IMG/VR virus record: IMGVR_UViG_2534681675_000018
Coordinates: 1 to 11,212 of that record
From: a virus
Taxonomy: Duplodnaviria; Heunggongvirae; Uroviricota; Caudoviricetes
DNA: 11,212 nucleotides
Reading direction: 5' to 3' (one strand)
A program made the position numbers and the translations under genes. The notes beneath the pieces are model-generated. The model worked only from the letters and a program-made list of their open reading frames with translations. It did no database searches and had not been told where the DNA came from. This document shows, piece after piece, positions 1 through 11,212 of the stretch; positions within the stretch are counted from its first letter, which is position 1; every line of letters starts with the position of its first letter.

Positions 1-435
1 GTGTTTTTTAGTCCATCTTTAAATATTTTTGTGAATCCTGCGCTTAAGGATGACTACATCAATGTAAATTCATGGCCAGATGATGCTGTTGAAGTTGATG
101 AGCAGGTGTATATTGAGTTTTCCGGATTACCGCCGAAAGGAAAAATCCGTATCGCTGGGGAAAATGGTTTTCCTGCATGGTCTGAAATTCCACCACCAAC
201 GCATGAGGAACAGATTGCCGCAGCCGAATTGAAAAAACAGCAATTGATTAATCAGTCCAACGAATATATGAATACCAAGCAATGGCCTGGTAAAGCGGCT
301 ATTGGTCGTCTGAAAGGTGAGGAACTGGCGCAATATAATTTGTGGCTGGATTATCTGGACGCACTGGAACTGGTTGATACCTCCAGTGCTCCAGATATTG
401 AATGGCCTACGCCTCCGGCAGTTCAGGCCAGATGA
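1..435 (+). CDS. tfa: Tail fibre assembly protein (Tfa, P2 gpG / Mu U-like chaperone); 5' end may lie upstream of the window
   Basis: C-terminus ...NLWLDYLDALELVDTSSAPDIEWPTPPA matches the conserved Tfa C-terminal motif and parallels the C-terminus of the convergent copy at 407..1000. ORF starts with GTG at base 1, so the N-terminus is uncertain. Stop TGA at 433..435. Confidence 0.78.
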   Translation: MFFSPSLNIFVNPALKDDYINVNSWPDDAVEVDEQVYIEFSGLPPKGKIRIAGENGFPAWSEIPPPTHEEQIAAAELKKQQLINQSNEYMNTKQWPGKAAIGRLKGEELAQYNLWLDYLDALELVDTSSAPDIEWPTPPAVQAR

Positions 436-1000
436 CATCCGGCGCGGTGCTCGTATCTGTTGCCGTCACCGCGTCAATGTAATCAAGCACGGCGTTAAGC
501 CGGGTGGTTTCTGCCTGCGTCAGCTTCCGCCCGGCCTGTAATTTCAGCTGAATCAGACTGATGGAAGCCATTGCAGCATCAATCAGTGACTGGCGCTGTG
601 CTTCTGCCGCTTCTACTGCGGCACCGTGTTGTGCCTCAGTATCTGTCACCCATTTCTCACCATCCCATTTATCGTATGGCGTTAACGGTGAAAGCGTGAC
701 ATAACCGTCTTTGATGGCACCGATATAATCCACTGTAACAGCAGCACCATTTTCGATTGAGTAAACAGTCTCATTGCGATGGTCTTCTTCATGGCTCCAT
801 CCCTTACCTGTAAATACTGCCACTCTTCCCGGAATGTTTTCGCCAGGGTCAATACCAGTTGAACAGGCGGGCATACTTACGCCAGTATTAATATATTCAT
901 CAGACCAGCCCGTATACTCAGATGTTTCAGCATCATAATAAAAACAACGCATATCACCCGGCACTGTAGCCAGCCCATTTTCATCAAAAACAGGTTTCAT
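407..1000 (-). CDS. tfa: Tail fibre assembly protein, alternate copy (Tfa') inside the invertible segment
   Basis: 197 aa ending ...LNAVLDYIDAVTATDTSTAPDVIWPELPEA (conserved Tfa C-terminus). Convergent with and overlapping the 3' end of the plus-strand tfa by 29 nt. Its ATG overlaps the TAA of the upstream fibre cassette by 1 nt (TAATG), implying translational coupling. Confidence 0.85.
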   Translation of the reverse strand: MKPVFDENGLATVPGDMRCFYYDAETSEYTGWSDEYINTGVSMPACSTGIDPGENIPGRVAVFTGKGWSHEEDHRNETVYSIENGAAVTVDYIGAIKDGYVTLSPLTPYDKWDGEKWVTDTEAQHGAAVEAAEAQRQSLIDAAMASISLIQLKLQAGRKLTQAETTRLNAVLDYIDAVTATDTSTAPDVIWPELPEA

Positions 1001-1506
1001 TATGCAGCCCTCACAATATAATTAAAGGCGATGTTACGTGGACGGTTTTCATTAGCTGTTGGCACGACACGAGAGGCGTCGAATCCAAGGTCATCGGTTT
1101 TGTCTATAGTAGTTGTGTTATTCGGCATTCTCGCTGATCGTGTTCCTGCATCGTAAAAAGCCCCTCTGATTGCATCAAAAGACATACCGATCCCGCCATC
1201 TGCGAATCCCTCAATATTTCTTATTGCATCCCCCTGTGAAGATAATAATTGTCGCCCGGCATCCACTCCACGTCCGTCATCCCAGCCACGAATAAATTCA
1301 CCGCGTAAATCAGGCAATTTATTTTTCGGATAAACCTTTGCCAGTTCCGGGTATTCTTCAGCAGAAAAAGCCGCACCGTTGCATTTCAGCCAGCCAGTAG
1401 GCGGTGTGGCTGAAGGCCACGGAACAGGCACACCAACGGGTAATGCTGAACCTTCTCCCAAACCAACGTTTAAGAAAATGCAGAGATTACGGCTAACTGG
1501 CATCAT
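1000..1506 (-). CDS. Alternate tail-fibre C-terminal (receptor-binding) cassette, promoterless in this orientation
   Basis: Gly-rich sequence with ...GVPVPWPSATPPTGW..., as I recall for variable C-terminal parts of Mu S/S', P1 S and e14/Rac Stf side fibres. No own promoter or RBS context; lies between tfa' and the invertase; contains a gix-like site near its 5' end. The first ATG reported by the ORF track is probably not a real start; the frame would be joined to a constant fibre N-terminus after inversion. Confidence 0.7.
   Translation of the reverse strand: MMPVSRNLCIFLNVGLGEGSALPVGVPVPWPSATPPTGWLKCNGAAFSAEEYPELAKVYPKNKLPDLRGEFIRGWDDGRGVDAGRQLLSSQGDAIRNIEGFADGGIGMSFDAIRGAFYDAGTRSARMPNNTTTIDKTDDLGFDASRVVPTANENRPRNIAFNYIVRAA
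1453..1478. other. Candidate Gin/Hin/Pin-type recombination (crossover) site
   Basis: TTCTCCCAAACC AA CGTTTAAGAAAA: two 12-bp imperfect inverted half-sites around a central AA. By eye about 19/26 identical to hixL (TTCTTGAAAACCAAGGTTTTTGATAA) and similar to gixL, both recalled from memory. Sits at the invertase-proximal edge of the alternate fibre cassette, where Mu gixR / e14 pix sites lie. Confidence 0.45.
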
Positions 1507-1533
1507 CCCCGGTTTTTATTCAGGGGATCCATC

Positions 1534-2133
1534 ATGCTTATTGGCTATGTCCGCGTATCAACAAATGACCAGAATACAGAATTGCAGCGTAACGCGCTGG
1601 AGTGCGCAGGATGTGAACTGATTTTTGAAGATAAAATCAGCGGAACGAAATCAGCCAGACCGGGATTGAAAAAACTGATCAGAACGCTATCAGAAGGAGA
1701 TACGCTGGTTGTCTGGAAGCTGGACAGACTGGGCAGAAGTATGAAACACCTGATCACGCTTATTGAGGAATTGCGGGAAAAAGGTGTTAATTTCCGTAGT
1801 CTGACGGACAGCATTGACACATCAACACCCATGGGGCGTTTCTTTTTTCACGTCATGGGGGCTTTAGCCGAAATGGAACGTGAATTAATTGTAGAGCGTA
1901 CACTGGCCGGGCTGGCGGCAGCGCGCGCACGGGGGCGCATTGGCGGACGTCGCCCGAAGTTGACAAAAGAACAACACGAGCAAATAGCGAGGCTGATTAA
2001 AAACGGTCATGACAGGAAACAACTGGCGATCATTTACGACATCGGCATATCGACGATTTATCGTTATCACCCTGTAGGCGATATACAGGCTGAAGAAACA
2101 ACCAGGCAGACTCAGGAAAATGAAAACCGCTAA
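1534..2133 (+). CDS. Serine DNA invertase (Gin/Hin/Pin/Cin family)
   Basis: 199 aa beginning MLIGYVRVSTNDQNTELQRNALECAGCE...VVWKLDRLGRSMKHLI...FRSLTDSIDTSTPMGRFFFHVMGALAEMERELI..., near-identical in motif content to Mu Gin as I recall it. Catalytic Ser in the RVS motif at residue 9; C-terminal HTH (GISTIYRY). SD AGGGGA 6 nt upstream of the ATG. Confidence 0.95.
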   Translation: MLIGYVRVSTNDQNTELQRNALECAGCELIFEDKISGTKSARPGLKKLIRTLSEGDTLVVWKLDRLGRSMKHLITLIEELREKGVNFRSLTDSIDTSTPMGRFFFHVMGALAEMERELIVERTLAGLAAARARGRIGGRRPKLTKEQHEQIARLIKNGHDRKQLAIIYDIGISTIYRYHPVGDIQAEETTRQTQENENR

Positions 2134-2152
2134 TCTGACCATTAGCGGTTTT
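2123..2152. terminator. Bidirectional hairpin between convergent invertase and gpU genes
   Basis: Perfect 12-bp inverted repeat AAAACCGCTAAT / ATTAGCGGTTTT separated by 6 bp (ctgacc), with A-run on one side and T-run on the other, so it can act as an intrinsic terminator in both directions. The invertase TAA stop (2131..2133) lies inside the left arm. Confidence 0.45.
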
Positions 2153-2159
2153 GCGTTAA

Positions 2160-2654
2160 TCAAAACAGCCCTTTAACGGAGCTGGCCGCGCTGTTAAGGG
2201 ATGATGTGACCTTATCTTTGAAGCCGGACAGCATATCGCTGAACGATGAGGATTGCAGGCGCTCCCGCAAATCCTCATCACAGCGTTCAAGGGTCAGTGA
2301 AAATTCTATCTTTTTCGCCTTACCGTAGCGATCAAACTCGGAGCGGGTCGTATTCGTTCCGGTCAGGACATACATGCCGTAAATCTGCCCGACACCATCA
2401 ATCAGAGGCCAGGGGCGTCCTGTATATGCCTGCGTGGTCAGCAACGAAAGCGATACTTCGCCACCTGTAATTTCAGGATAAAGCACACCAGAAAGAACGA
2501 TGCGATCATCGCCTGCCCCGATATACTGCCAGCTTGCTGAACGGTTAACGCGTTCATTTTTCACATGCCGCCAGCTTTTGTTTTGCTGTAACTGCTGATG
2601 CGGCAATGTGCGCAGCTCAAAAACAAACATGCCGTAGATCATCATCATGGCCAT
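2160..2654 (-). CDS. U: P2 gpU-like tail protein
   Basis: 164 aa, M(A)MMMIYGMFVFELRTLPHQQLQ... resembles the N-terminus of P2 gpU family tail proteins. Immediately downstream of the tape measure on the same strand (T stop 2661..2663, GAGGAG SD in between). True start may be the third ATG (2648). Confidence 0.75.
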   Translation of the reverse strand: MAMMMIYGMFVFELRTLPHQQLQQNKSWRHVKNERVNRSASWQYIGAGDDRIVLSGVLYPEITGGEVSLSLLTTQAYTGRPWPLIDGVGQIYGMYVLTGTNTTRSEFDRYGKAKKIEFSLTLERCDEDLRERLQSSSFSDMLSGFKDKVTSSLNSAASSVKGLF

Positions 2655-2660
2655 GACTCC

Positions 2661-5498
2661 TCAATCTTTATCGTAAAAACTGCCACGCCCGGCACGGGCG
2701 CGCCGTTCCATTTCTGCCCTGACCATTTCACCGACCAGTTTCGCCAGTTCGCGGGGATTCTGCGTAACAACGTTATGCAGATGAACATGAATTTCACCGC
2801 CAAATCCGGAGACAACAGGCTCCCGGTTACGGGAAGTTGCAGGAACTGATGCCACTGGCGATCGTATGGCCTCCGCCACCGGGCGGGAGCTGGCCGCAAC
2901 AACAGGGACCAGCGCCGGAGGCAGAGGAGTCGGGACCACGGGTGTGATGTTGATTGCGGAAGCTGGCTTACTGATCTGCGCAATCTTCCGCTCCTGCCAC
3001 TCCCCACGAACAGCAAGTGCGCGGGGCAGGTTCTTAAAGACAATATCGCCGGGGCCAATGCGTTTTTTCGTCTCATCAACCAGCTTACCTGTGTTATCAG
3101 CAATTTTGCTGAGTCTGCGTAGCGTACCGGTATTGCTGTCTGTGAGCGGTTTGTTGTCTTTGGGTTTATCACCTCCGGTGCCATTTTCCACAGGCTTCGG
3201 CGGATTGATTTTCGCCAGGTCCCCCTGAAGCAAGGCAACCTTGTCCTGAAGAATGGCCGCACGCTGTGCGTCTTCGATTTTCTTTCTCGCCCTTTCCGCT
3301 TCATCCGGAAGCACACCGAGTTTTTCAAGTATCCACGCCAGCGTATCCAGCAGCATTTTTGCAGGCGTCAGAACAAGCTGTAGCGCGCCACCAAGAACGT
3401 TACCGAATATCTCGCCAGCACTGGTACATTTATCCAGCGTTTCCTTGCTGGACTCCATCGGTGACAGCAGCGATTTAAACCAGTTAAAGAGCTGAATAAT
3501 CCCATCGCGCACGACATCAAAAACAGGACCAAACCGTTCAAAGGTTTCGCGCAACGGAGCCAGCCGTTCCATAATCCCACTGAACACCCCGGCATAAAAC
3601 GCCTTGATGGGTTCCCAGTATTTCCAGATGAGAACCGCCGCAGCCACAAACGCGGCAACAATCAATCCGACCGGACTGAACAGCGCCCCGATAGCGCCAC
3701 CCAGCAACGAGATGGAACCTGTTACCATTCCCCATAGTGCTGGCAGCACCCTGACGACATTCATTGATCCGGTCAGGAGAGAAAAACCAAGACGTAACGT
3801 GGCCAGTTTCCCGTGAAGCACGCCAATAACCAGCGACAACGAGCCAATCGTTGCAGTCATTGCCAGCAACGCACCGCCTGCTATCAGTAGCTGGCGCGTC
3901 AGTGCCGGATGGGCCTGCGCCAGCGCCGTCACCCTTGATACCACCCGCGTGAGCCACTGCGTGACAGAACGCAGCGGGCCGTCAATCAGATCTGCAATGC
4001 GGATGCGCAACCCTTCCCATGCACTGCCGAGTGATTTCAGATCGCCATCAAGGTTGTTGGCCATAACCTTTGCCGTGCGTTCAGCCTCACCGCGTGCGCC
4101 TTCAAGTTCTTTTCTCAGTTTGGGTAAGGAACCGTCACCTGCCGCATCAACGAGGGCCATAAACGATGTGAAAGCCTCTTCCCCGGCGATGTCCTTAAAG
4201 AAGGATACCCGGTCAACTTCCCCGTATTTGCGGGTGGCTTTATAAAGGTCGGCCAGCACATCCTCCATCGGGCGCATTTTGCCGTTCGCGTCAGAAACTG
4301 CCACACCAAGCTCTTTCAGCGCCTCTGCTGCTGCCTTTGGCGGTGATGCCAGACGAGCCAGGCTGGCACGCATTGCCGTCCCGGCATCACTCCCTCTGAT
4401 ACCCATATTCGCCAGCACGCCCGCCATCGCTGCGGCCTGCTCCAGCGATATTCCCAGCTTACCCGCCACCGGACCTGCATATTTCATGGTTTCGCCCAGT
4501 GCGCGAAGGTCAGTGTTGGTACGGGTAAACGCTGCGGTGAGTGTGTCACCAACCCGGTCCATCTGGTCAGCAGAAAGGCCGAACTGCGTCAGGATATTTG
4601 AGCCAATATCCGCCGTCTCGCCGAGATCCATGCCGCCAGCCGTTGCCATGCTCAGCACGCCCGGAAGCGCAGCCTGAATGGCCTGCGGTGTGAAGCCAGC
4701 CATTGCAAGAAATGCCTGTCCACTGGCGGCATCGCCTGCGGTGAACTGCGTTTCAGAGCCAAGTTTTAACGCCTGCTCACGCAGCGCCTTAAACTGTGGG
4801 CTGTTCTGGTCGATTCGCGTCAGTGCCTGAACGCGGGACATCTCTTTCCCGAACCCGATCGCAGGCTGCAAAAAACGCCCGGCAGCATAGCCGCCAGCCG
4901 CTGCCGCACCAATTGCCAGCGCACCACCTGTTTTCAGTTTTCCAGCAGTTTCCTGCGCGCGCGAATACCGCTCACGCGCCCGCGTTACACGCGCAAGCGT
5001 CTGCCGTTCGCGTTCAAGCTGGTTGTTGTACTGTTCGGTGCGTCTGATGGCCTGCTGGATGGTGTTATCGCTGCCTGTCAGGGAAATGCCGTGGCGTTTC
5101 AGCTCTCCGCCAAGCTCCCGCATTTTCTGAATTTCCCGTGTGCGCGATTCATTCAGGCGTTCAAGCCGGGTGCTTAACTGCTGCATCAGCTTTTGTTGTT
5201 TTTCGCTGAGCACTGTACCCGTGCGTTGTAACTGATTAAGGGCGTTAAGCTGGCGTCGTGCTTTCACGATGCTCGCATCCGCTTTACTGACAGCGTCACG
5301 GGCGCGCTCAAATGAACGCGCCTGACGCTCGAGATTTTTGATCGCCCCCTGCGTTCGCTGGATGGAGTCACCAAACTGCCCCATCAGGCGGCGGGCGTTT
5401 TCGGCAGGCCGGGTCAGCCTGTCAACGGCGCTGAAAGCGACCCGGATATCAAGAGTCTTCATTGTCTGCATTCCCGCTGCGAAGTGCCGCCCGCTCAC
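2661..5498 (-). CDS. T: Tail tape measure protein (P2 gpT-like)
   Basis: 945 aa with coiled-coil-rich N-terminal third (repeated Q/R/E/L heptad-like stretches), Gly/Ala-rich central region and hydrophobic segments, typical of tape measure proteins. Position after the E/E' chaperone pair and before gpU. GTG start at 5498 is the longest option; ATG at 5471 or 5462 are alternatives. Confidence 0.9.
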   Translation of the reverse strand: MSGRHFAAGMQTMKTLDIRVAFSAVDRLTRPAENARRLMGQFGDSIQRTQGAIKNLERQARSFERARDAVSKADASIVKARRQLNALNQLQRTGTVLSEKQQKLMQQLSTRLERLNESRTREIQKMRELGGELKRHGISLTGSDNTIQQAIRRTEQYNNQLERERQTLARVTRARERYSRAQETAGKLKTGGALAIGAAAAGGYAAGRFLQPAIGFGKEMSRVQALTRIDQNSPQFKALREQALKLGSETQFTAGDAASGQAFLAMAGFTPQAIQAALPGVLSMATAGGMDLGETADIGSNILTQFGLSADQMDRVGDTLTAAFTRTNTDLRALGETMKYAGPVAGKLGISLEQAAAMAGVLANMGIRGSDAGTAMRASLARLASPPKAAAEALKELGVAVSDANGKMRPMEDVLADLYKATRKYGEVDRVSFFKDIAGEEAFTSFMALVDAAGDGSLPKLRKELEGARGEAERTAKVMANNLDGDLKSLGSAWEGLRIRIADLIDGPLRSVTQWLTRVVSRVTALAQAHPALTRQLLIAGGALLAMTATIGSLSLVIGVLHGKLATLRLGFSLLTGSMNVVRVLPALWGMVTGSISLLGGAIGALFSPVGLIVAAFVAAAVLIWKYWEPIKAFYAGVFSGIMERLAPLRETFERFGPVFDVVRDGIIQLFNWFKSLLSPMESSKETLDKCTSAGEIFGNVLGGALQLVLTPAKMLLDTLAWILEKLGVLPDEAERARKKIEDAQRAAILQDKVALLQGDLAKINPPKPVENGTGGDKPKDNKPLTDSNTGTLRRLSKIADNTGKLVDETKKRIGPGDIVFKNLPRALAVRGEWQERKIAQISKPASAINITPVVPTPLPPALVPVVAASSRPVAEAIRSPVASVPATSRNREPVVSGFGGEIHVHLHNVVTQNPRELAKLVGEMVRAEMERRARAGRGSFYDKD

Positions 5499-5987
5499 GC
5501 CAGCTAACCACTTCGCCGGGCGTCATCATGAAGATTTCGGCGGGCGACCAGTTAAAAATGGCGGCGATATCTGCCACCAGATCTTCGATGTGCTCAAAGC
5601 ACACCAGGGTGATTACGCTGCCGTCTCCTGCACGCTCTTCGCGCCAGAGTCTGGCTCGCTCATAAAATTTACAGCCACAGCGCACAACTGAATAAAATCG
5701 CGTGACGACATTTTTTTAATCATCACTTCATCCAGTCGTGGCGAGGTCACGCGAGGCAACAGCGTGAACATGGTATCCGCTTTCAGATTCAGCACATCAG
5801 ACAGCGACAGACCACGCAGGGATCCAGCCTGTTCAATAGCCCCGGTGATCTCCACATACGTGATTTTTTCGCCACCACGCTCAATTGGTCGGGTCAGTTT
5901 TACGCCACGTTCGACAGCCATATCCTCACCTGCCGTCACATCATCCACCACGGTGTTATTCCGGGTTTCAGTATCGATGTCTTTCAT
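5449..5987 (-). CDS. Predicted E+E' fusion chaperone made by programmed -1 ribosomal frameshift (E codons 1-92 joined to the -1 frame ending at 5449)
   Basis: The -1 frame relative to E has no stop from the A7 run at 5711..5717 down to 5449 and overlaps the tape measure start. This matches the conserved tail-chaperone frameshift architecture (lambda G/GT, P2 E/E+E'). Confidence 0.55.
5613..5987 (-). CDS. E: Tail assembly chaperone (P2 gpE-like)
   Basis: 124 aa ORF directly between the tube gene and the tape measure, with AAGGAG SD 6-7 nt upstream of the ATG at 5987. An A7 run (5711..5717) lies in the coding sequence and a -1 frame is open from that point to 5449, the hallmark of the E/E+E' pair. 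Confidence 0.7.
   Translation of the reverse strand: MKDIDTETRNNTVVDDVTAGEDMAVERGVKLTRPIERGGEKITYVEITGAIEQAGSLRGLSLSDVLNLKADTMFTLLPRVTSPRLDEVMIKKMSSRDFIQLCAVAVNFMSEPDSGAKSVQETAA
5711..5717 (-). other. Putative -1 frameshift slippery site (A AAA AAA on the coding strand)
   Basis: T7 on the plus strand = A7 on the coding strand, read as AUU AAA AAA AUG in the E frame. Slipping back one base on the Lys codons reads AAU GUC GUC... in the open E' frame. Confidence 0.5.
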
Positions 5988-6042
5988 CAGTTTTCTCCTT
6001 TTCAGTCAGAGGCGACGCACTGCGCCGCCTGCATATTACTTA

Positions 6043-6555
6043 TCAGCCAAGCCCGAGCGCGGAACGGATACGGTCAGGCACAATGTCCTTGCCGTCCTTC
6101 CGGTAGATGTGGTTCAACAGGTCGATTTCCCACAGCGGGCGATCGTTAACGCTCAGCTTGTAGTAGGTGTTTTTGACAGCGTAAGTGTGTGATGTGGCTT
6201 CGCCCTGTTTGGCTTCCCCCATATCAATTTCCGTCACACGTCCGCGCATCTCGATTTCATACAGATCGCTTTCTGCATCGGTGTAGTATTCACCCGCAAA
6301 ACGCAGCAGCGTGCCGTCAATCGCGCCGCCATATTTAAGGAACAGCGCACGAACAGCTCCCCCCATGACAAAACTCGCATCAAGCGCGGAGTCGTCCAGA
6401 CCGAGATCAATACTTACCGCCCCCATCATGCCACCACCACGATAGCTGTCGGTTTTGCGCGTCAGTTTGGGCGGCGTGACGGATGTCACTTTACCCACTT
6501 CGTTTTCACCATCCACAAACAACGTAAAAAAGCGAAGATGTTTTGGTACAGCCAT
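6043..6555 (-). CDS. FII: Tail tube protein (P2 FII-like)
   Basis: 170 aa immediately downstream of the sheath gene. Sheath stop and tube start overlap (TGATG) at 6553..6557. Size and position match the contractile-tail tube protein. Confidence 0.88.
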   Translation of the reverse strand: MAVPKHLRFFTLFVDGENEVGKVTSVTPPKLTRKTDSYRGGGMMGAVSIDLGLDDSALDASFVMGGAVRALFLKYGGAIDGTLLRFAGEYYTDAESDLYEIEMRGRVTEIDMGEAKQGEATSHTYAVKNTYYKLSVNDRPLWEIDLLNHIYRKDGKDIVPDRIRSALGLG

Positions 6556-7739
6556 CAGGCACCTCCCAGCACCGCAAATGCGGGACCAAAGAATTCATCA
6601 GTAAACGTCTGGTAAAGCTCCATGTCTTCCAGCGGGGGAACAGGCGTATATTTGTAGCGAATACGCACACGTCCCTGACGTAAATTCGTGGTGCCGTTAT
6701 CCACCACGTCATACCAGCACTCCGCACCAATCAGTTTCCCGGCAGTAACCAGCGAATCCAGTTTTGCCCTGATGGCGCTGATAACATCCTTCACGTTCGC
6801 AGGTGTCAGTGGACTGTCGATGGTTTCAAACTGCGCTTCCGCAATTGAATCAGCCAGCACCTGTGCGGTTCGGGTATACACCTCAAAGATGTAGGCGTTC
6901 GTTTCCGGTGTGCGGTTGCCCCAGAAGCGGAACCCGTTGCGACGAATAATGGTCGTGATTTCTTTGTTGTTGAGGCTGTTGGCATCGCTGTCTTCGGCCT
7001 GCAACGACCAGAACACATGCCTGGACATCCCCAGCACATTTTTAACCGGAACGTTGGACAGCGATTTGTGCCAGCCCTGTTCATGGTCAATGTACGCACG
7101 AAGGCCGCACGCATAGGCAGGCGCGGGGAACGTTTCGTTTTCGCCACTTTTCGGGTTGTAGGCGATGAAGTCCGGCCATAAGAGCATCACTTCACGTTCG
7201 TTGAATTTCTGGCGGTAGGTAATCGCTTCAGCCATCGTGTTACAGCCGTGACATGAGGCATACACAAATGCGCGCAGTTTACCCGCAATCACGCACAGGG
7301 ATTTTGTCACCGCCTCCGTGTCCAGCTCCGGCGCGGCCAGAATACGCGGACGGTATCCGATGCTTTCATCCTGCTCTGCAACAAGCAGCGCATACATCCC
7401 CGTATAGCTGCCGTCATCCTCAGAACCACCGATAACCAGTTGATCCTGCGTCTTTTCGTCTTCTTCTTTGTGTTCAGCCACGCGAACGACGATCACCTTT
7501 GTGCTCACCTGGTCTGCGATGGCCTTAAGCGCACGATAAAGCGTCCCCGTTGTCCCGCATTTCCCCAGCACGTCATTGACGCGGGTCAGCAGTGTGGGCT
7601 TGTTCAGCGGGAACAGCTTCGCGTCCGCATCATCCGCCGTTGCCACGATACCGATAACGCTGGAATCAACATCGTTAATCGCTGTTACCAGGTCGGTATT
7701 TTCCGTAACACGGGCACCATGAAAACGAGTTTCACTCAT
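6555..7739 (-). CDS. FI: Contractile tail sheath protein (P2 FI-like)
   Basis: 394 aa, the size of P2 FI; first gene of the sheath-tube-chaperone-tape measure order; AAGGGG SD upstream of the ATG at 7739. Confidence 0.9.
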   Translation of the reverse strand: MSETRFHGARVTENTDLVTAINDVDSSVIGIVATADDADAKLFPLNKPTLLTRVNDVLGKCGTTGTLYRALKAIADQVSTKVIVVRVAEHKEEDEKTQDQLVIGGSEDDGSYTGMYALLVAEQDESIGYRPRILAAPELDTEAVTKSLCVIAGKLRAFVYASCHGCNTMAEAITYRQKFNEREVMLLWPDFIAYNPKSGENETFPAPAYACGLRAYIDHEQGWHKSLSNVPVKNVLGMSRHVFWSLQAEDSDANSLNNKEITTIIRRNGFRFWGNRTPETNAYIFEVYTRTAQVLADSIAEAQFETIDSPLTPANVKDVISAIRAKLDSLVTAGKLIGAECWYDVVDNGTTNLRQGRVRIRYKYTPVPPLEDMELYQTFTDEFFGPAFAVLGGA

Positions 7740-7896
7740 AGCTTCAGCCCCTTGTATCCGTTAAATGATTCAGCAACAATCATCACCCACCACGCGCGTA
7801 ATCTCACCCCTGCGCTATTCTCCCGTCACGGCGACAACAAAAAGCAGTAACCCACTCCGCACGCACATGCGACCATGCCGCACAGGGAGGGAACAG

Positions 7897-9006
7897 ATGA
7901 CCGACACCACCATGCAATTGCTCAGTCAGGGCACAGACCCCGTGAAAATGCCGGATTTTGATATTCTCGCGGAGGGTAAAACGTTGTCAGGCGTGGCAGA
8001 GCGCCTGATGAGCCTGTCACTGACCGACAACCGGGGATTTGAGGCGGACCAGCTCACCATCACGCTGGATGATGCGGATGGTCAGTTGCAGCTACCGCTA
8101 CGGGGCGCGCGCCTGACGGTTCTCATTGGCTGGAAGGGAGAACCGCTGACAGAAAAAGGCACTTACATTGTTGATGAAATCGCTCACGAAGGACCGCCGG
8201 ACAGGCTGACTGTTTCAGCCAGAAGCGCAGATTTTCGGGATGAATTTAACGTTAAACGTGAGGTGTCCTGGCATGATGTGACCATTGAGCGTGTGGTATC
8301 CGCCATCGCTCATCGGTATGGTCTGAAACCGCAAATCAGCGAAATGCTGATGGATATCGAAATCGACCACGCCGACCAGACCGAAGAAAGCGACATGTCC
8401 TTCCTTACGCGCATGGCGGAAATGCTGGGCGCAATCACCACGGTAAAAAGCGGCAATCTGTTATTCATCATGCCAGGTGGTGGCGTGAACGCACAGGGCC
8501 AGCCGTTGCCCTCGTTCGCCATTACACGCAGCAGCGGCGATCGCCATCAGTTCCGTATTGCTGACCGCGAGGCTTATACGGGGGTACGCGCCTACTGGCT
8601 TGATCTTAATTACGGGAAAAAGAAAAAAGTCAGCGTAAAACGCCGTAAACCGCCAAAACCCAAAAAGGAGAAAAGCAGCAGCCGTGAAGGTGATTATATG
8701 GAAGGCGCGGAAGGCAATGTGTTTGTGTTACGCAAGACTTATCAGAACGAGCAGGCAGCAAGACGCGCAGCGGCGGCAAAGTGGCAGCAACTACAACGCG
8801 GAGCCGCAGCGTTCTCCATCACGCTGGCGCGTGGACGTGCAGAACTCTACCCCGAAATGCATGGCACGGTAACAGGATTTAAAAGCGAGATTGATAATCA
8901 GGACTGGATCATTGCAAAAGCCGAGCACACCATTGATAACAGTGGCTTTACCACGCAGCTTGAGCTTGAAGCAAAAATCCCGGAATGGATAGCAGAAACA
9001 GAGTGA
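7897..9006 (+). CDS. D: P2 gpD-like tail protein (late control gene D family)
   Basis: Start chosen at ATG 7897 (MTDTTMQLLSQGTDPVKMPDFDILAEGKTL...) because it has a strong SD AGGGAGG 6 nt upstream. The upstream part of the track ORF (7765..7896) is low-complexity and not protein-like. About 369 aa, the size of gpD, and followed directly by ogr as in P2. Confidence 0.85.
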   Translation: MTDTTMQLLSQGTDPVKMPDFDILAEGKTLSGVAERLMSLSLTDNRGFEADQLTITLDDADGQLQLPLRGARLTVLIGWKGEPLTEKGTYIVDEIAHEGPPDRLTVSARSADFRDEFNVKREVSWHDVTIERVVSAIAHRYGLKPQISEMLMDIEIDHADQTEESDMSFLTRMAEMLGAITTVKSGNLLFIMPGGGVNAQGQPLPSFAITRSSGDRHQFRIADREAYTGVRAYWLDLNYGKKKKVSVKRRKPPKPKKEKSSSREGDYMEGAEGNVFVLRKTYQNEQAARRAAAAKWQQLQRGAAAFSITLARGRAELYPEMHGTVTGFKSEIDNQDWIIAKAEHTIDNSGFTTQLELEAKIPEWIAETE

Positions 9007-9048
9007 GCAACTTAGAATAGCGGCAGCACCACGTTAAGGGAGGTCGCT

Positions 9049-9309
9049 ATGTTCCGTTGTCCGCTTTGTGGCGCATCTGCCCGTATCCGCACCAGTCGTC
9101 CGGAAAATGATTCAAACACCGTGCGGCAAAAGTATTACCAGTGTAACAATCTGGAATGCGGCGTATGCTTCTCAACACTGGAAGCTTTCCATAAATTCAC
9201 ATCGAAACATGCCTCCGGCGTTCACTCTTCAGAAGGTATCCCGTGGCATGAGCTGCCAGCTTCACACAGGGGAAACAATCAGATGAGCTTGCCTTTATCT
9301 CAGAATTAA
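9049..9309 (+). CDS. ogr: Ogr/Delta-family zinc-finger late transcription activator
   Basis: MFRCPLCGASARIRTSR...YYQCNNLECGVCF... has the C-x2-C-x22-C-x4-C arrangement and the MFxCPLC N-terminus of P2 Ogr. SD AAGGGAGG 5 nt upstream. Confidence 0.85.
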   Translation: MFRCPLCGASARIRTSRPENDSNTVRQKYYQCNNLECGVCFSTLEAFHKFTSKHASGVHSSEGIPWHELPASHRGNNQMSLPLSQN

Positions 9310-9318
9310 CAGGCAGAA

Positions 9319-9347
9319 TTGCCGGAGTAACAAAAAAGCGATAGATT
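9319..9347 (+). promoter_or_regulatory. Candidate sigma70 promoter for the Hok-like toxin transcript
   Basis: TTGCCG - 17 bp - TAGATT immediately after the ogr stop. The predicted transcript 5' end (about 9352..9356, GCGCGGGUGCC) would give a roughly 400-nt RNA ending at the 9720..9744 hairpin, the size class of hok mRNAs. Confidence 0.3.
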
Positions 9348-9369
9348 ACGCGCGGGTGCCTTTCGGCTG

Positions 9370-9633
9370 ATGGTCGGAGGGAATACCCGAAGGCCGGATG
9401 TGGAAAGGCCCCGGAAAACATTTCTGTTTAACCGAGGCCCTAACCGCATTACCTTGACAAGTGAAAGGTTAGCGCCTCTCCGGAAAAGGAGCAAGTGCTA
9501 TGTCGCAAAAATCGCTTACGGCCATCACGTTCTGCGTGACGGCAATCCTCATCATCTGGATGCTGCATGGTTCGCTGTGCGAAATACGGATGAGCTTCTG
9601 GGGAGCGGAGTTTGCGGCGTTCTTACAGTGTAA
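9370..9633 (+). CDS. Possible mok-like overlapping reading frame (modulator of toxin translation)
   Basis: Open frame starting upstream of the toxin ORF, overlapping almost all of it and ending 7 nt before its stop, the same geometry as mok/hok. Protein is low-complexity, so it may only serve translational coupling. Real start uncertain (ATG 9370 or GTG 9400). Confidence 0.3.
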   Translation: MVGGNTRRPDVERPRKTFLFNRGPNRITLTSERLAPLRKRSKCYVAKIAYGHHVLRDGNPHHLDAAWFAVRNTDELLGSGVCGVLTV

Positions 9634-9640
9634 GCAGTAA
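9500..9640 (+). CDS. hok: Hok/Gef-family type I toxin (46 aa small membrane protein)
   Basis: Not in the ORF track (below 60 aa). ATG 9500 with SD AAGGAG 8 nt upstream; TAA at 9638..9640. Protein MSQKSLTAITFCVTAILIIWMLHGSLCEIRMSFWGAEFAAFLQCKQ has an N-terminal hydrophobic helix with C-V-T-A-I and C-terminal SLCEIR...E.AAF, matching Hok (...KSLCEIRYRDGHREVAAF...). Confidence 0.65.
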   Translation: MSQKSLTAITFCVTAILIIWMLHGSLCEIRMSFWGAEFAAFLQCKQ

Positions 9641-9719
9641 GGAAACCGCGACGGGGGAGCAATCCCCCGTCAATCGGTTGCCAGGGTATGGTCGAAGTGG
9701 CACCCAAATTTAAATTGAG

Positions 9720-9744
9720 GCCCACCAGTAAGAGTGGTGGGTTT
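9720..9744 (+). terminator. Weak hairpin/terminator at the 3' end of the toxin transcript
   Basis: CCCACCA gtaagag TGGTGGG followed by TTT; flanked by palindromic AAATTTAAATT-type repeats. Confidence 0.3.
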
Positions 9745-9775
9745 AACGCTTATTTAAATTTGAAAGGAACTCTTT

Positions 9776-10078
9776 ATGAGTGAAATGGTATTTTGTCGCG
9801 GATGCGGCAAGGAAATACATAAAGATGCCACATCCTGCCCCAATTGTGGAGCACCTCAAAGAACAGCAAGTTCAAAAAGCAGAATGACAGCCGCACTACT
9901 GGCTTTCTTTTTAGGTGGTCTTGGTGCACACAAATTTTATTTAGGTAAAGTGGGGCAAGGATTCCTTTACCTTATTTTTGCTGGACATTCATTCCGGCAA
10001 TCGTGGCATTTATTGAGTTTTTTATCTATCTATGCACCTCTGATGAAGACTTTGCCCGCAAATATGGCTAATGCCTAG
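9776..10078 (+). CDS. Zinc-ribbon / TM2-domain membrane protein, with apparently frameshifted C-terminus
   Basis: N-terminal CRGCG...CPNCG zinc ribbon, then LLAFFLGGLGAHKFYLGK (TM2-domain-like first helix and GAH+FY motif). After the T5 run at 9975..9979 the -1 frame encodes a clean second helix and acidic tail (CWTFIPAIVAFIEFFIYLCTSDEDFARKYG, stop 10069..10071), whereas the in-frame continuation (AGHSFRQSWHLLSFLSIYAPLMKTLPANMANA) is not helix-like. SD AAAGGA 7 nt upstream of the ATG. Confidence 0.7.
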   Translation: MSEMVFCRGCGKEIHKDATSCPNCGAPQRTASSKSRMTAALLAFFLGGLGAHKFYLGKVGQGFLYLIFAGHSFRQSWHLLSFLSIYAPLMKTLPANMANA

Positions 10079-10097
10079 TGGGCGAATCAGAATGACA

Positions 10098-10131
10098 AAC
10101 CCGCAGCATAAAAACTGCGGGTTTTCTTTTT
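10098..10131 (+). terminator. Rho-independent terminator downstream of the TM2 gene
   Basis: AAACCCGCAG cataaaaa CTGCGGGTTT followed by TCTTTTT: GC-rich 7-bp stem (extendable by A-T pairs) plus a U-run. Confidence 0.75.
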
Positions 10132-10155
10132 GTCACCCTCACAAATGAGGGTAAC
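10132..10155. promoter_or_regulatory. Near-perfect palindrome (possible operator or second terminator hairpin)
   Basis: GTCACCCTCA caaa TGAGGGTAAC: 10-bp arms matching 9/10, 4-bp spacer, directly after the terminator U-run and upstream of the GATC dyad. Confidence 0.3.
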
Positions 10156-10175
10156 ACCACTCATAAGTAATAGGC

Positions 10176-10229
10176 ATAACAGATCGATGCAATAAATCCG
10201 ATCGATAAAAACGATCGATTTGTTATCAT
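10176..10229. promoter_or_regulatory. Dyad-symmetric element with three GATC (Dam) sites overlapping a -10-like hexamer; putative methylation-sensitive operator/promoter of the com-like operon
   Basis: GATC at 10182..10185, 10200..10203 and 10213..10216, each within GATCGAT. Outer arms ATAACAGATCGAT (10176..10188) and ATCGATTTGTTAT (10214..10226) are inverted repeats (12/13), with the symmetry centre on the middle GATC. TATCAT -10-like hexamer at 10224..10229 overlaps the right arm; com-like start codon is about 35 nt downstream. Confidence 0.45.
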
Positions 10230-10263
10230 ATCGGCAGCAGTAACCACACAAGAGGTGCCGCAA

Positions 10264-10461
10264 ATGACGCAAAATGTACGATGCAAAAATTGCAACAAAC
10301 TACTTGCCCGCGCCTCATTTCACTACATTGAAATAAAATGTCCGCGCTGCAAAACACTTAACCAGATAACGAGAGCCATCGAGCACCCCACACACATGAG
10401 GAGTTATGACCGTGGGGATCGCAATCCAGCACCAACCAGCACATACACCGGAACACACTAA
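10264..10461 (+). CDS. com: Com-like zinc-finger translational regulator
   Basis: MTQNVRCKNCNKLLARASFHYIEIKCPRCKTLNQITRAIEHPT... closely parallels Mu Com as I recall it (MKSIRCKNCNKLLF...HIEIRCPRCK...EHPT), including the four-Cys zinc finger. ATG 10264 preferred over the track's GTG 10255 (SD AGAGG 8 nt upstream). The 3' end overlaps the methyltransferase start by 56 nt, as com overlaps mom. Confidence 0.75.
   Translation: MTQNVRCKNCNKLLARASFHYIEIKCPRCKTLNQITRAIEHPTHMRSYDRGDRNPAPTSTYTGTH
10386..10417 (+). promoter_or_regulatory. Predicted RNA stem-loop sequestering the methyltransferase SD and start codon
   Basis: CCCCAC (10386..10391) pairs with GTGGGG (10412..10417). The 20-nt loop contains GAGGAG (10398..10403) and the ATG at 10406; a fourth GATC sits at 10417..10420. 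Analogous to the translation-inhibition stem of the Mu mom mRNA that Com relieves. Confidence 0.35.
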
Positions 10462-11212
10462 GGTTTATCAGACTGACAATGCCACGCTCTGTCGTGGGAA
10501 TGCGCTGGAAATATTGCCGCTGATTGAGCCAGAAAGCATTGATGCCTTAATCACTGACCCGCCTTACAGTTCGGGTGCGACACACAAGGCCGGACGCACC
10601 AACCAAGGCAGCCATGCAAAATATCTGAACGGCGAGAACCTTCACCGCTTTGATGGGTTCGCGGGTGAAAACATGGACGCCCGTTCGTGGGCTTACTGGA
10701 CACAATTATGGATGGCACAGGCACACCGCGCAGTCAGGCCGGGCGGTTATGCCCTGGTATTTACTGACTGGCGACAACTACCAGCTTTAACCGATGCGTT
10801 TCAGGCCAGCGGCTTTACATGGCGCGGCATCATTGCGTGGAACAAGGGGAGGGGGTCACGAACACCCCATACGGGGTATTTCAGGCATCAGTGCGAATAC
10901 ATCGTCTGGGGCAGCAAAGGCCATTTAGATAAATCGCCTTCGGGGCCGTTCGACGGCTGCATGACGTACCCGGTTATCCCGTCAAAGAAAATGCACCCGA
11001 CCGGAAAACCAGAAGAACTAATGGCGGAACTGGTCAGGACTGTGAATAGTGGCGGAACAGTCCTTGATCCTTTTATGGGGTCAGGGACAACGGGTGTGGC
11101 TGCACTGAAAGCAGGGCGAAAATTTATTGGTATAGAAACCAGTGATCATTATTTTGAGGTAGCAGCGCAGCGGCTTCGGGGGACTATTACCACAACCATT
11201 TCGGCTACATAA
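10406..11212 (+). CDS. DNA methyltransferase, beta-class amino-methyltransferase (N6-adenine or N4-cytosine; DPPY motif)
   Basis: 268 aa with catalytic motif IV LITDPPYSSG near the N-terminus and AdoMet-binding motif I (LDPFMGSGTTGVAALKAGRKFIGIE) near the C-terminus. This motif order defines the beta group. Start at ATG 10406 or GTG 10412; stop TAA is the last three bases of the window. No restriction endonuclease partner in the window. Confidence 0.9.
   Translation: MTVGIAIQHQPAHTPEHTKVYQTDNATLCRGNALEILPLIEPESIDALITDPPYSSGATHKAGRTNQGSHAKYLNGENLHRFDGFAGENMDARSWAYWTQLWMAQAHRAVRPGGYALVFTDWRQLPALTDAFQASGFTWRGIIAWNKGRGSRTPHTGYFRHQCEYIVWGSKGHLDKSPSGPFDGCMTYPVIPSKKMHPTGKPEELMAELVRTVNSGGTVLDPFMGSGTTGVAALKAGRKFIGIETSDHYFEVAAQRLRGTITTTISAT

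Follow-up and report, generated by a model that had tools for sequence, protein, structure and literature searches.

A probable hok/sok-type toxin-antitoxin cassette beside ogr in a P88-like Escherichia coli prophage and its apparently mok-less leader

Introduction

What is encoded in the short stretch of DNA that follows ogr in a P2-related prophage, and how would its product be kept silent? We considered this question for an 11,212-nt viral sequence (IMG/VR record IMGVR_UViG_2534681675_000018, positions 1 to 11,212; hereafter the window), in which the initial annotation, made from the letters alone, had proposed an unannotated Hok/Gef-like type I toxin locus with an undefined antitoxin. Here we describe the setting of the locus, its toxin, its RNA elements and a candidate Sok gene, and we compare it with hok/sok of plasmid R1 and hokW-sokW of phage 933W.

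Results

Genomic setting and previous records

The locus lies at the tail and late-control end of a P2-related prophage, next to genes for a tape-measure protein, gpU, the tail tube, the tail sheath, gpD and ogr, and is followed by further cargo consisting of a TM2-domain gene and then com and a DNA methyltransferase gene. The 436-nt region that contains it has 100% identical counterparts in many E. coli chromosomes with P88-like (Peduoviridae) prophages. Of 5426 complete E. coli genomes, 1750 carry relatives detectable by blastn, and about 2980 E. coli copies were counted. RefSeq holds the identical gene as WP_000078916.1, 'Hok/Gef family protein', placed directly after the ogr/Delta gene of a prophage integrated by raiA/bamD, and the phages P88, P88_4B11, PhiR44_2, Chuche and 500465-2 (Xuanwuvirus, Peduoviridae) carry versions of 94-97% identity annotated 'MokW-like host killing'. 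In public collections the exact peptide is present on at least 1000 contigs under the names 'Hok/Gef family protein' and 'protein HokA', and a sister allele is called 'small toxic polypeptide'.

Further copies lie elsewhere. One of about 80% identity adjoins lom in Stx phages, and others lie in the interval that separates gpJ from a tail-fibre gene and in an island, where the neighbour is a type-B L31 gene. The cassette occupies at least four insertion contexts, with sharp boundaries.

The same peptide, at the same site beside ogr in E. coli P88-like prophages, is catalogued as 72_1621 in Table S2 of a Hok survey (Escalera-Maurer et al., bioRxiv 10.1101/2025.08.07.668861), where it belongs to 60%-identity cluster 72, a 'high-abundance cluster'. 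In that study 72_1621 was cloned as LRP137 for arabinose-induced toxicity assays, 42 of 45 Hok constructs were toxic, 72_1621 is not one of the three named as non-toxic, and the text reports it as toxic. The survey also describes an enrichment of hok in prophages, and it explicitly leaves mok, Sok and mRNA structure unanalysed. Our literature search found nothing specific on hok in P2-like prophages adjoining ogr. Since thousands of E. coli genomes carry the gene with an annotation and its exact peptide has been reported toxic, the locus is an ordinary element that was already known, widespread and catalogued; 'unannotated' was true of the ORF track from which the proposal was made, but not of RefSeq, the phage records or the survey.

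The toxin gene and its product

The toxin gene is an ORF of 46 codons that encodes MSQKSLTAITFCVTAILIIWMLHGSLCEIRMSFWGAEFAAFLQCKQ, as read from the window sequence, and an AAGGAG Shine-Dalgarno (SD) sequence at 9486..9491 precedes its ATG by 8 nt, so that the ORF and the strong SD of the initial annotation are both present (Table 1). Its assignment to the Hok/Gef-type membrane toxins is borne out by Pfam HOK_GEF (PF01848), which the peptide matches with 29.9 bits against a cutoff of 22 (E = 4.1e-7), passing the gathering score; residues 7-44 align without gaps to positions 5-42 of the 42-position profile. PHROG_251, 'MokW-like host killing', is matched with an E value of 1e-22.

One hydrophobic helix lies in the N-terminal part of the peptide, and the residues conserved in the Hok family are found at C12, T14, L26-C27-E28 and E37, equivalent to C16, T18, L30-C31-E32 and E41 in Hok R1 numbering, and alignments to both Hok R1 and HokW are gapless. 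Because of these gapless alignments, to which the Pfam alignment can be added, no residue has been lost before LCE, and the deletion first suggested at that point is not there. Compared with Hok R1, with which it has 39% identity over 31 aa and shares the toxin fold and the Cys/Thr/LCE/E residues, the peptide is shorter and ends in a QCK tail with an extra Cys. This agrees with an earlier description of a shorter protein with a different C-terminal tail, except that length has been lost at the N terminus as well as at the C terminus.

The chromosomal hokA-E genes of E. coli K-12 fall within the same Pfam family, and HokA is the best NCBIfam match of the peptide, though below its cutoff: the score is 34 against 89 for the HokA equivalog (NF007290) and 21.6 against 73 for the Hok subfamily (NF007279). 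Because it fails both cutoffs, the peptide represents a separate subfamily, and the name HokA that some sources attach to it is ruled out. The initial suggestion of a distinct subfamily is thus, judged from these profile scores, a fair label.

The hok ORF is intact in every allele examined. Its dN/dS values of 0.13-0.52 across six alleles are well below 1 and indicate purifying selection.

Table 1. Features of the hok locus, in window coordinates.
Feature	Position	Strand	Description
hok promoter	9319..9347	+	candidate; -35 TTGCCG 9319..9324, 17-nt spacer, -10 TAGATT 9342..9347; putative +1 at G9354
full-length hok mRNA (predicted, ~352 nt)	9354..9705	+	from Rfam model start, homology end and fold
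tac element (5' end)	9354..9368	+	partner is fbi 9690..9705 (full-length fold) or ucb 9400..9412 (3'-truncated fold)
'mok-like' frame, 87 codons	9370..9633	+	open in the window allele; not conserved
ucb-like box GUGGAAAGGCCCC	9400..9412	+	alternative tac partner; nearly invariant in 14 alleles
predicted Sok-like antisense RNA, ~57 nt	9402..9458	-	by positional homology to annotated SokW of 933W; ends predicted
stem GAGGCCCUAAC (9434..9445) / GUUAGCGCCUC (9467..9478)	9434..9478	+	homologous to the SDmok/dcb stem of R1 hok; 5' arm inside the Sok target
Sok promoter (candidate)	9466..9494	-	-35 TTGCTC 9494..9489, overlapping the hok SD; 17-nt spacer; -10 TAACCT 9471..9466
anti-SD CUCC 9478..9481 with GGAG 9488..9491 of the hok SD AAGGAG	9478..9491	+	hairpin 9470..9481 / 9488..9500 in folds
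hok CDS	9500..9640	+	46 aa, single TM helix, Hok/Gef family; 60%-identity cluster 72, peptide 72_1621
GC-rich 3' hairpin GACGGGGGAG-CA-AUCCCCCGUC	9650..9671	+	likely 3'-trimming stop, by analogy with R1 hok
fbi element (3' end)	9690..9705	+	pairs with tac

Predicted promoter and transcript

A candidate promoter upstream of the locus had been noted from the sequence, and its hexamers are present and kept in position in five genomic contexts and in 933W hokW. Across the P88-like, Stx-phage, gpJ/tail-fibre and island contexts, the -35 and -10 hexamers move along with the cassette. A generic scan of 9250..9800 for consensus promoters and terminators returned no promoter, the hok promoter being under its threshold, and its one terminator-like output was the 3' hairpin, read on the minus strand. 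Such a scan is uninformative for the weak, family-specific promoters of this locus.

The extent of the predicted mRNA is indicated at both ends. The Rfam model RF01794 (sok/hok leader), which represents the hok leader in the sense orientation, matches 9354..9513 over its whole length (model positions 1-157) at E = 6.2e-8 and 46.2 bits, under its gathering score of 59, and model position 1 falls on G9354, the first base of GGGTGCC. BLAST homology to P88-like and Stx phages ends at query position 396, that is, at 9705. This is the last base of fbi, and homology stops there in every context; at the 5' side its edge runs upstream into the promoter. The heptamers GGGTGCC (9354..9360) and GGCACCC (9699..9705) are perfectly complementary.

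Further downstream, we rejected a MicC-like Rfam match at 10014..10138 as a genuine sRNA, since its 29 bits lie under the gathering score of 90 and stem from the terminator hairpin.

Predicted folding of the hok mRNA

The predicted mRNA folds with -157.6 kcal/mol (z = -6.06 against shuffles), and in both the MFE and the centroid structure its ends close in a 15-bp helix between tac and fbi, in line with the 5'/3' end pairing that the complementary heptamers had suggested. In an alignment of 14 alleles the tac/fbi pairing is retained in 91.8% of cells, compared with 33-53% when the partner is slid. A covariation test on the same 14 alleles found one double change in this helix, not above shuffles, and because there is almost no covariation, comparison gives the tac/fbi helix no independent proof. 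An alignment-based search of species-representative genomes returned six loci only, from Escherichia, Salmonella and contigs assigned to Planococcaceae, Vagococcus and Xanthomonas that appear to be contaminants, and with so few loci a deep covariation analysis is impossible.

In the full-length RNA, the SD and the AUG are predicted to be held in a hairpin with 9470..9481. When the RNA is truncated to 9354..9675, tac is predicted to pair with the ucb-like box instead, GAGGCCCUAAC pairs with GUUAGCGCCUC, and the SD hairpin is reduced to a few pairs. Blocking the Sok target (9402..9458) in this truncated fold removes the GAGGCCCUAAC/GUUAGCGCCUC stem, and the SD hairpin forms again. The tac/ucb helix is also the consensus structure of both RNAalifold and Rfam. 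In the RNAalifold structure, columns 83-95 pair with 118-129 (the GAGG/CCUC stem) and are almost invariant; the helix between the start codon and the 3' coding region and the 3' hairpin are recovered as well. Compensatory changes occur in 14 pairs of this consensus structure (14 alleles), and those in the 3' hairpin affect four stem pairs (columns 305/329, 306/328, 312/322 and 313/321). Ensemble calculations of SD accessibility gave no difference between the full-length, truncated and Sok-blocked RNAs; because GGAG is paired in all three, the proposed SD switch is a property of the MFE structures only.

A candidate Sok gene

A convincing Sok promoter had not been recognised at first, and the antitoxin was left undefined. 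Homology to sokW now supplies both a candidate promoter, TTGCTC-17-TAACCT, and a predicted RNA that runs on the minus strand from about 9458 to 9402. On the opposite strand of 933W hokW, sokW starts 7 nt downstream of TAACCT, with TTGCCT a further 17 nt upstream, and the geometry of the promoter in the window is that of this sokW promoter (TTGCCT-17-TAACCT). The primers YO-421/422 of Takada et al. (PMC8621323) alter the sokW -10 from TAACCT to GAGCCG, and the resulting 'promoter-less' construct unleashes HokW toxicity. By positional homology to this annotated and mutationally tested promoter, a Sok gene would thus be recognisable in the window.

Both hexamers are also marked by conservation. 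AGGTTA, the complement of the Sok -10, is invariant in all 14 distinct alleles and in 933W, and CAAG, which encodes the TTG of the Sok -35, is invariant in the same 14. The promoter agrees with the consensus at 6 of 12 positions, a weak match that explains why the scanner missed it. The predicted Sok RNA would comprise a 13-nt single-stranded 5' tail and a long GC-rich hairpin followed by UUUCC; it folds with -24.1 kcal/mol (z = -3.5) and has the architecture of SokW. The hairpin still folds in alleles whose hairpin interiors differ, and the terminator of Sok contains just three U.

The mok frame

The frame at 9370..9633, described as mok-like in the initial annotation, does exist in the window, but it is not conserved. 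A leader ORF with an ATG, GTG or TTG start that reaches the hok SD is absent from 9 of the 14 distinct alleles, among them the 96%-identical P88_4B11, in which the frame is closed, UTI89, and the Stx-phage and island copies. Near-cognate starts (CTG, ATT, ATC or ATA) in the mok frame upstream of hok were absent from the alleles checked. The window, AZ161 and E. albertii alleles do have a leader ORF up to the hok SD, each from a different start codon, and the S. diarizonae allele has just a short leader ORF with a GTG start. Where the mokW ATG is annotated in 933W, in frame with hokW, the window reads ACC. GTG 9400 is the only start of the frame with a well-spaced SD, and in relatives indels disrupt the frame that it opens.

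A conserved upstream ATG at 9398..9400, with GAAGG ahead of it, was considered as a substitute for mok and rejected. The uORFs that it opens lie in different frames and are anywhere between 1 and 61 codons long, and S. diarizonae has lost the ATG through a deletion; the ucb box and the 3' end of Sok account better for why this ATG is conserved. From these comparisons, the frame at 9370..9633 is probably open by chance in the window allele and not a functional part of the locus.

Discussion

Our analysis indicates that the region next to ogr very probably is a hok/sok-type type I toxin-antitoxin cassette that a P88-like (P2-related) E. coli prophage carries as cargo and that acts broadly in the way proposed below. 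The core of the initial proposal, a Hok/Gef type I toxin locus with the 5'/3' pairing of hok mRNAs, is upheld by the Pfam score, by the full-length RF01794 alignment and by the tac/fbi fold.

Two characterised systems provide the closest comparisons. Like hokW-sokW of 933W and Sakai prophage 5 (PMC8621323), the cassette is a prophage-borne hok/sok module, and the two can be aligned at the 5' GGGUGC, the ucb box or GAAAGGCCCC box, AGGUUAGC (the Sok -10), AAGGAG and the GC hairpin that follows the stop codon. They differ in the sokT hairpin, about 19 nt shorter here, in a 10-nt deletion before hok, and in the 'mokW' position, which has no ATG here. At the protein level, the 46-aa peptide and the 51-aa HokW are 31% identical over 35 aa. 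Moreover, 933W itself holds hokW/sokW at 58.4-58.7 kb as well as a cluster-72 ORF at 45660..45800 of its record, between lom and L0129 in an unannotated gap of AF125520. Because of the low identity and because 933W holds both loci at different places, the hok gene of the window is a paralogue and not an orthologue of hokW. With hok/sok (parB) of plasmid R1, the locus would have in common the tac/fbi closure, the alternative tac/ucb pairing, an antisense RNA over the leader and the sequestration of the SD, all of which are predicted here; in contrast to R1, it lacks a conserved mok, resides in a prophage rather than on a plasmid and scores under the Rfam gathering score.

Taken together with what is known of these systems, the predicted elements suggest the following course of events. 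A weak constitutive promoter would produce the ~352-nt mRNA, and this full-length RNA would be translationally silent, with tac clamped to fbi and the toxin ribosome-binding site in a local hairpin. Slow trimming of the 3' end up to the GC hairpin would then free tac to pair with the ucb-like box and so remodel the leader. A short, unstable Sok-like RNA, made from a promoter that overlaps the toxin SD, would pair with the remodelled leader and so silence the mRNA; cleavage of the duplex by RNase III and recapture of the SD by the freed CUCC anti-SD are the most likely means. Upon loss of Sok, the membrane peptide would be made and the cell depolarised or killed. Our analysis shows the ORF and its place in the family, the alternative pairings, the likeness of promoter and RNA to those of sokW, conservation and purifying selection, and the toxicity of the identical peptide is taken from the survey. 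The transcript ends are placed by homology, and the processing and the action of Sok are steps that we infer. Activation by 3' trimming would follow the precedent of R1, decay by RNase III would follow that of sokW, for which it has been partly shown, and the folding models suggest that Sok pairing may return the anti-SD to the SD without any mok.

In R1, translation of hok requires translation of mok up to the hok SD. Since this requirement is mandatory in R1 and mok is not conserved here, the cluster-72 subfamily probably controls hok differently, and the R1 mechanism is not transferable unchanged. It is possible, and we suggest it tentatively, that the 46-aa 'QCK' subfamily (cluster 72) is a naturally mok-less hok/sok variant in which an RNA switch would control the toxin SD directly, with no coupling to a leader peptide. 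According to the folding models, CCUCUCC (9475..9481) would have two alternative partners: GAGG (9435..9438) in the processed mRNA, which leaves hok on, and the hok SD, with which it would pair in the full-length RNA and wherever Sok occupies the GAGG arm, leaving hok off. A classical R1-type arrangement, in which the window frame, or a shorter one from GTG 9400 or TTG 9454, is a working mok with obligatory coupling and Sok blocks mok translation, would account for a frame that is open in the window allele, overlaps hok in the R1 mok/hok register and has three possible starts, and it would preserve the R1 requirement. We regard it as unlikely, given that 9 of 14 alleles, including that of P88_4B11, have stops and no start in frame upstream of hok, that the canonical mokW ATG is replaced by ACC, and that the one start with a well-spaced SD opens a frame broken by indels in relatives.

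The absence of mok could also be read as decay. Pedersen and Gerdes are said to have described in 1999 that many chromosomal hok loci are inactivated, and a non-functional remnant like several of the E. coli K-12 chromosomal loci, with an ORF that is never expressed, would fit both the missing mok and the weak consensus match of the two promoters. A remnant is nevertheless quite improbable for a cassette that has spread to at least four sharply bounded insertion contexts, whose ORF is uninterrupted in all alleles examined and has dN/dS values well under 1, whose RNA elements are all conserved and show compensatory changes, and whose exact peptide is reported to be toxic. That the DNA after ogr is only a spacer or terminator region between genes, in which the ORF arose by chance and is no gene, might be imagined from its 46 codons and its absence from the ORF track; the Pfam, PHROG and Rfam matches, the conservation in 1750 genomes and the purifying selection refute this and leave it a negligible chance.

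The role of the cassette could, by analogy, be to stabilise the prophage, to bring forward lysis on induction or to exclude other phages. [quoted passage not shown]

As a discovery, the locus carries little weight, being annotated, widespread, catalogued and reported toxic, and the enrichment of hok in prophages is known. What our analysis adds are coordinates for the promoter, tac, ucb, Sok, the SD hairpin and fbi in a Hok subfamily whose RNA elements were undescribed, together with a flag that cluster 72 has no conserved mok; this apparent mok-lessness is the only mildly novel point. The second hok locus beside lom in 933W-type Stx phages also bears on how hokW-sokW deletion phenotypes are read. 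If the mok-less reading is true, the need for mok, which is taken to be a family hallmark, would be dispensable, and Stx phages would hold a second, differently regulated hok locus that was intact in the published hokW-sokW deletion studies.

Sequence features around the hok cassette

In the leader of the predicted hok mRNA, the window carries an ATG at 9398..9400 (+), within the stretch 9398..9457 (+) and preceded by GAAGG at 9389..9393, and this ATG is kept in 13 of the 14 hok-locus alleles compared; the region is missing from the S. diarizonae allele. The upstream open reading frame that starts there varies in frame between alleles and spans anywhere from 1 to 61 codons. The region is probably kept as RNA, namely as the ucb box (the alternative partner of the mRNA 5' end) and the 3' end of the predicted Sok antisense RNA, rather than as coding sequence.

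Immediately past the 3' boundary of the conserved cassette lies a hairpin, CCCACCA-N7-TGGTGGG followed by TTTAACGCTTATTT (9721..9741, +), which is not a consensus terminator and is missing at the same position in P88-type relatives. It may act as a stop for ogr/hok read-through ahead of the downstream TM2-domain gene. Further along, a weak MicC-like Rfam match at 10014..10138 (+) (E 0.55, with a score of 29 bits where the family's gathering score is 90) is regarded as chance, its likeness being mainly limited to the terminator hairpin 3' of the TM2-domain gene.

The TM2-domain gene itself has a T5 run at 9975..9979 where E. coli 89-3156 has T6, and its product in the window therefore diverges after residue 68, ending in an unrelated tail for a total of 100 aa, against 98 aa in RefSeq WP_001519189.1. 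The Pfam TM2 match ends at residue 70. The T5 run represents either a frameshifted allele or a homopolymer sequencing error.

At the prophage end, a Mu Com-like gene overlaps the start of a methyltransferase gene; this com-methylase combination, annotated identically in RefSeq, is a cargo pair. At the start of the window (1..2133), a serine invertase adjoins a tail-collar fragment and two tail-fibre-assembly genes in opposite orientations, an arrangement resembling the invertible host-range segments of the Gin/Cin type.

Other genes noted in the window
Feature	Position	Strand
Tail-fibre-assembly gene	1..435	+
Tail-fibre-assembly gene	407..1000	-
Tail-collar fragment	1000..1506	-
Serine invertase (Resolvase + HTH_7)	1534..2133	+
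Zinc-ribbon + TM2-domain gene	9776..10078	+
Mu Com-like zinc-ribbon gene	10255..10461	+
DNA N6/N4 methyltransferase gene	10406..11212, continues past window end	+

Related hok loci in other genomes

Near-identical E. coli-type hok/prophage DNA also turned up in assemblies that bear the labels Planococcaceae MAG, Vagococcus sp. and Xanthomonas pisi (loci L011, L012 and L015); the likeliest cause is that enterobacterial contigs contaminated these assemblies or were mis-binned.

A second hok locus is present in phage 933W, a copy (MSQKSLITVTICMTVIFTIWMLHGSLCEFRLNLWGAEFAAFLQCKQ) belonging to cluster 72, the 60%-identity Hok cluster that contains the window's peptide. Located between lom and L0129 (L018 5661..5801, corresponding to 45660..45800 of AF125520) and lacking annotation in that record, this copy comes on top of the annotated hokW/sokW, and would remain intact in the published hokW-sokW deletions in Sp5.
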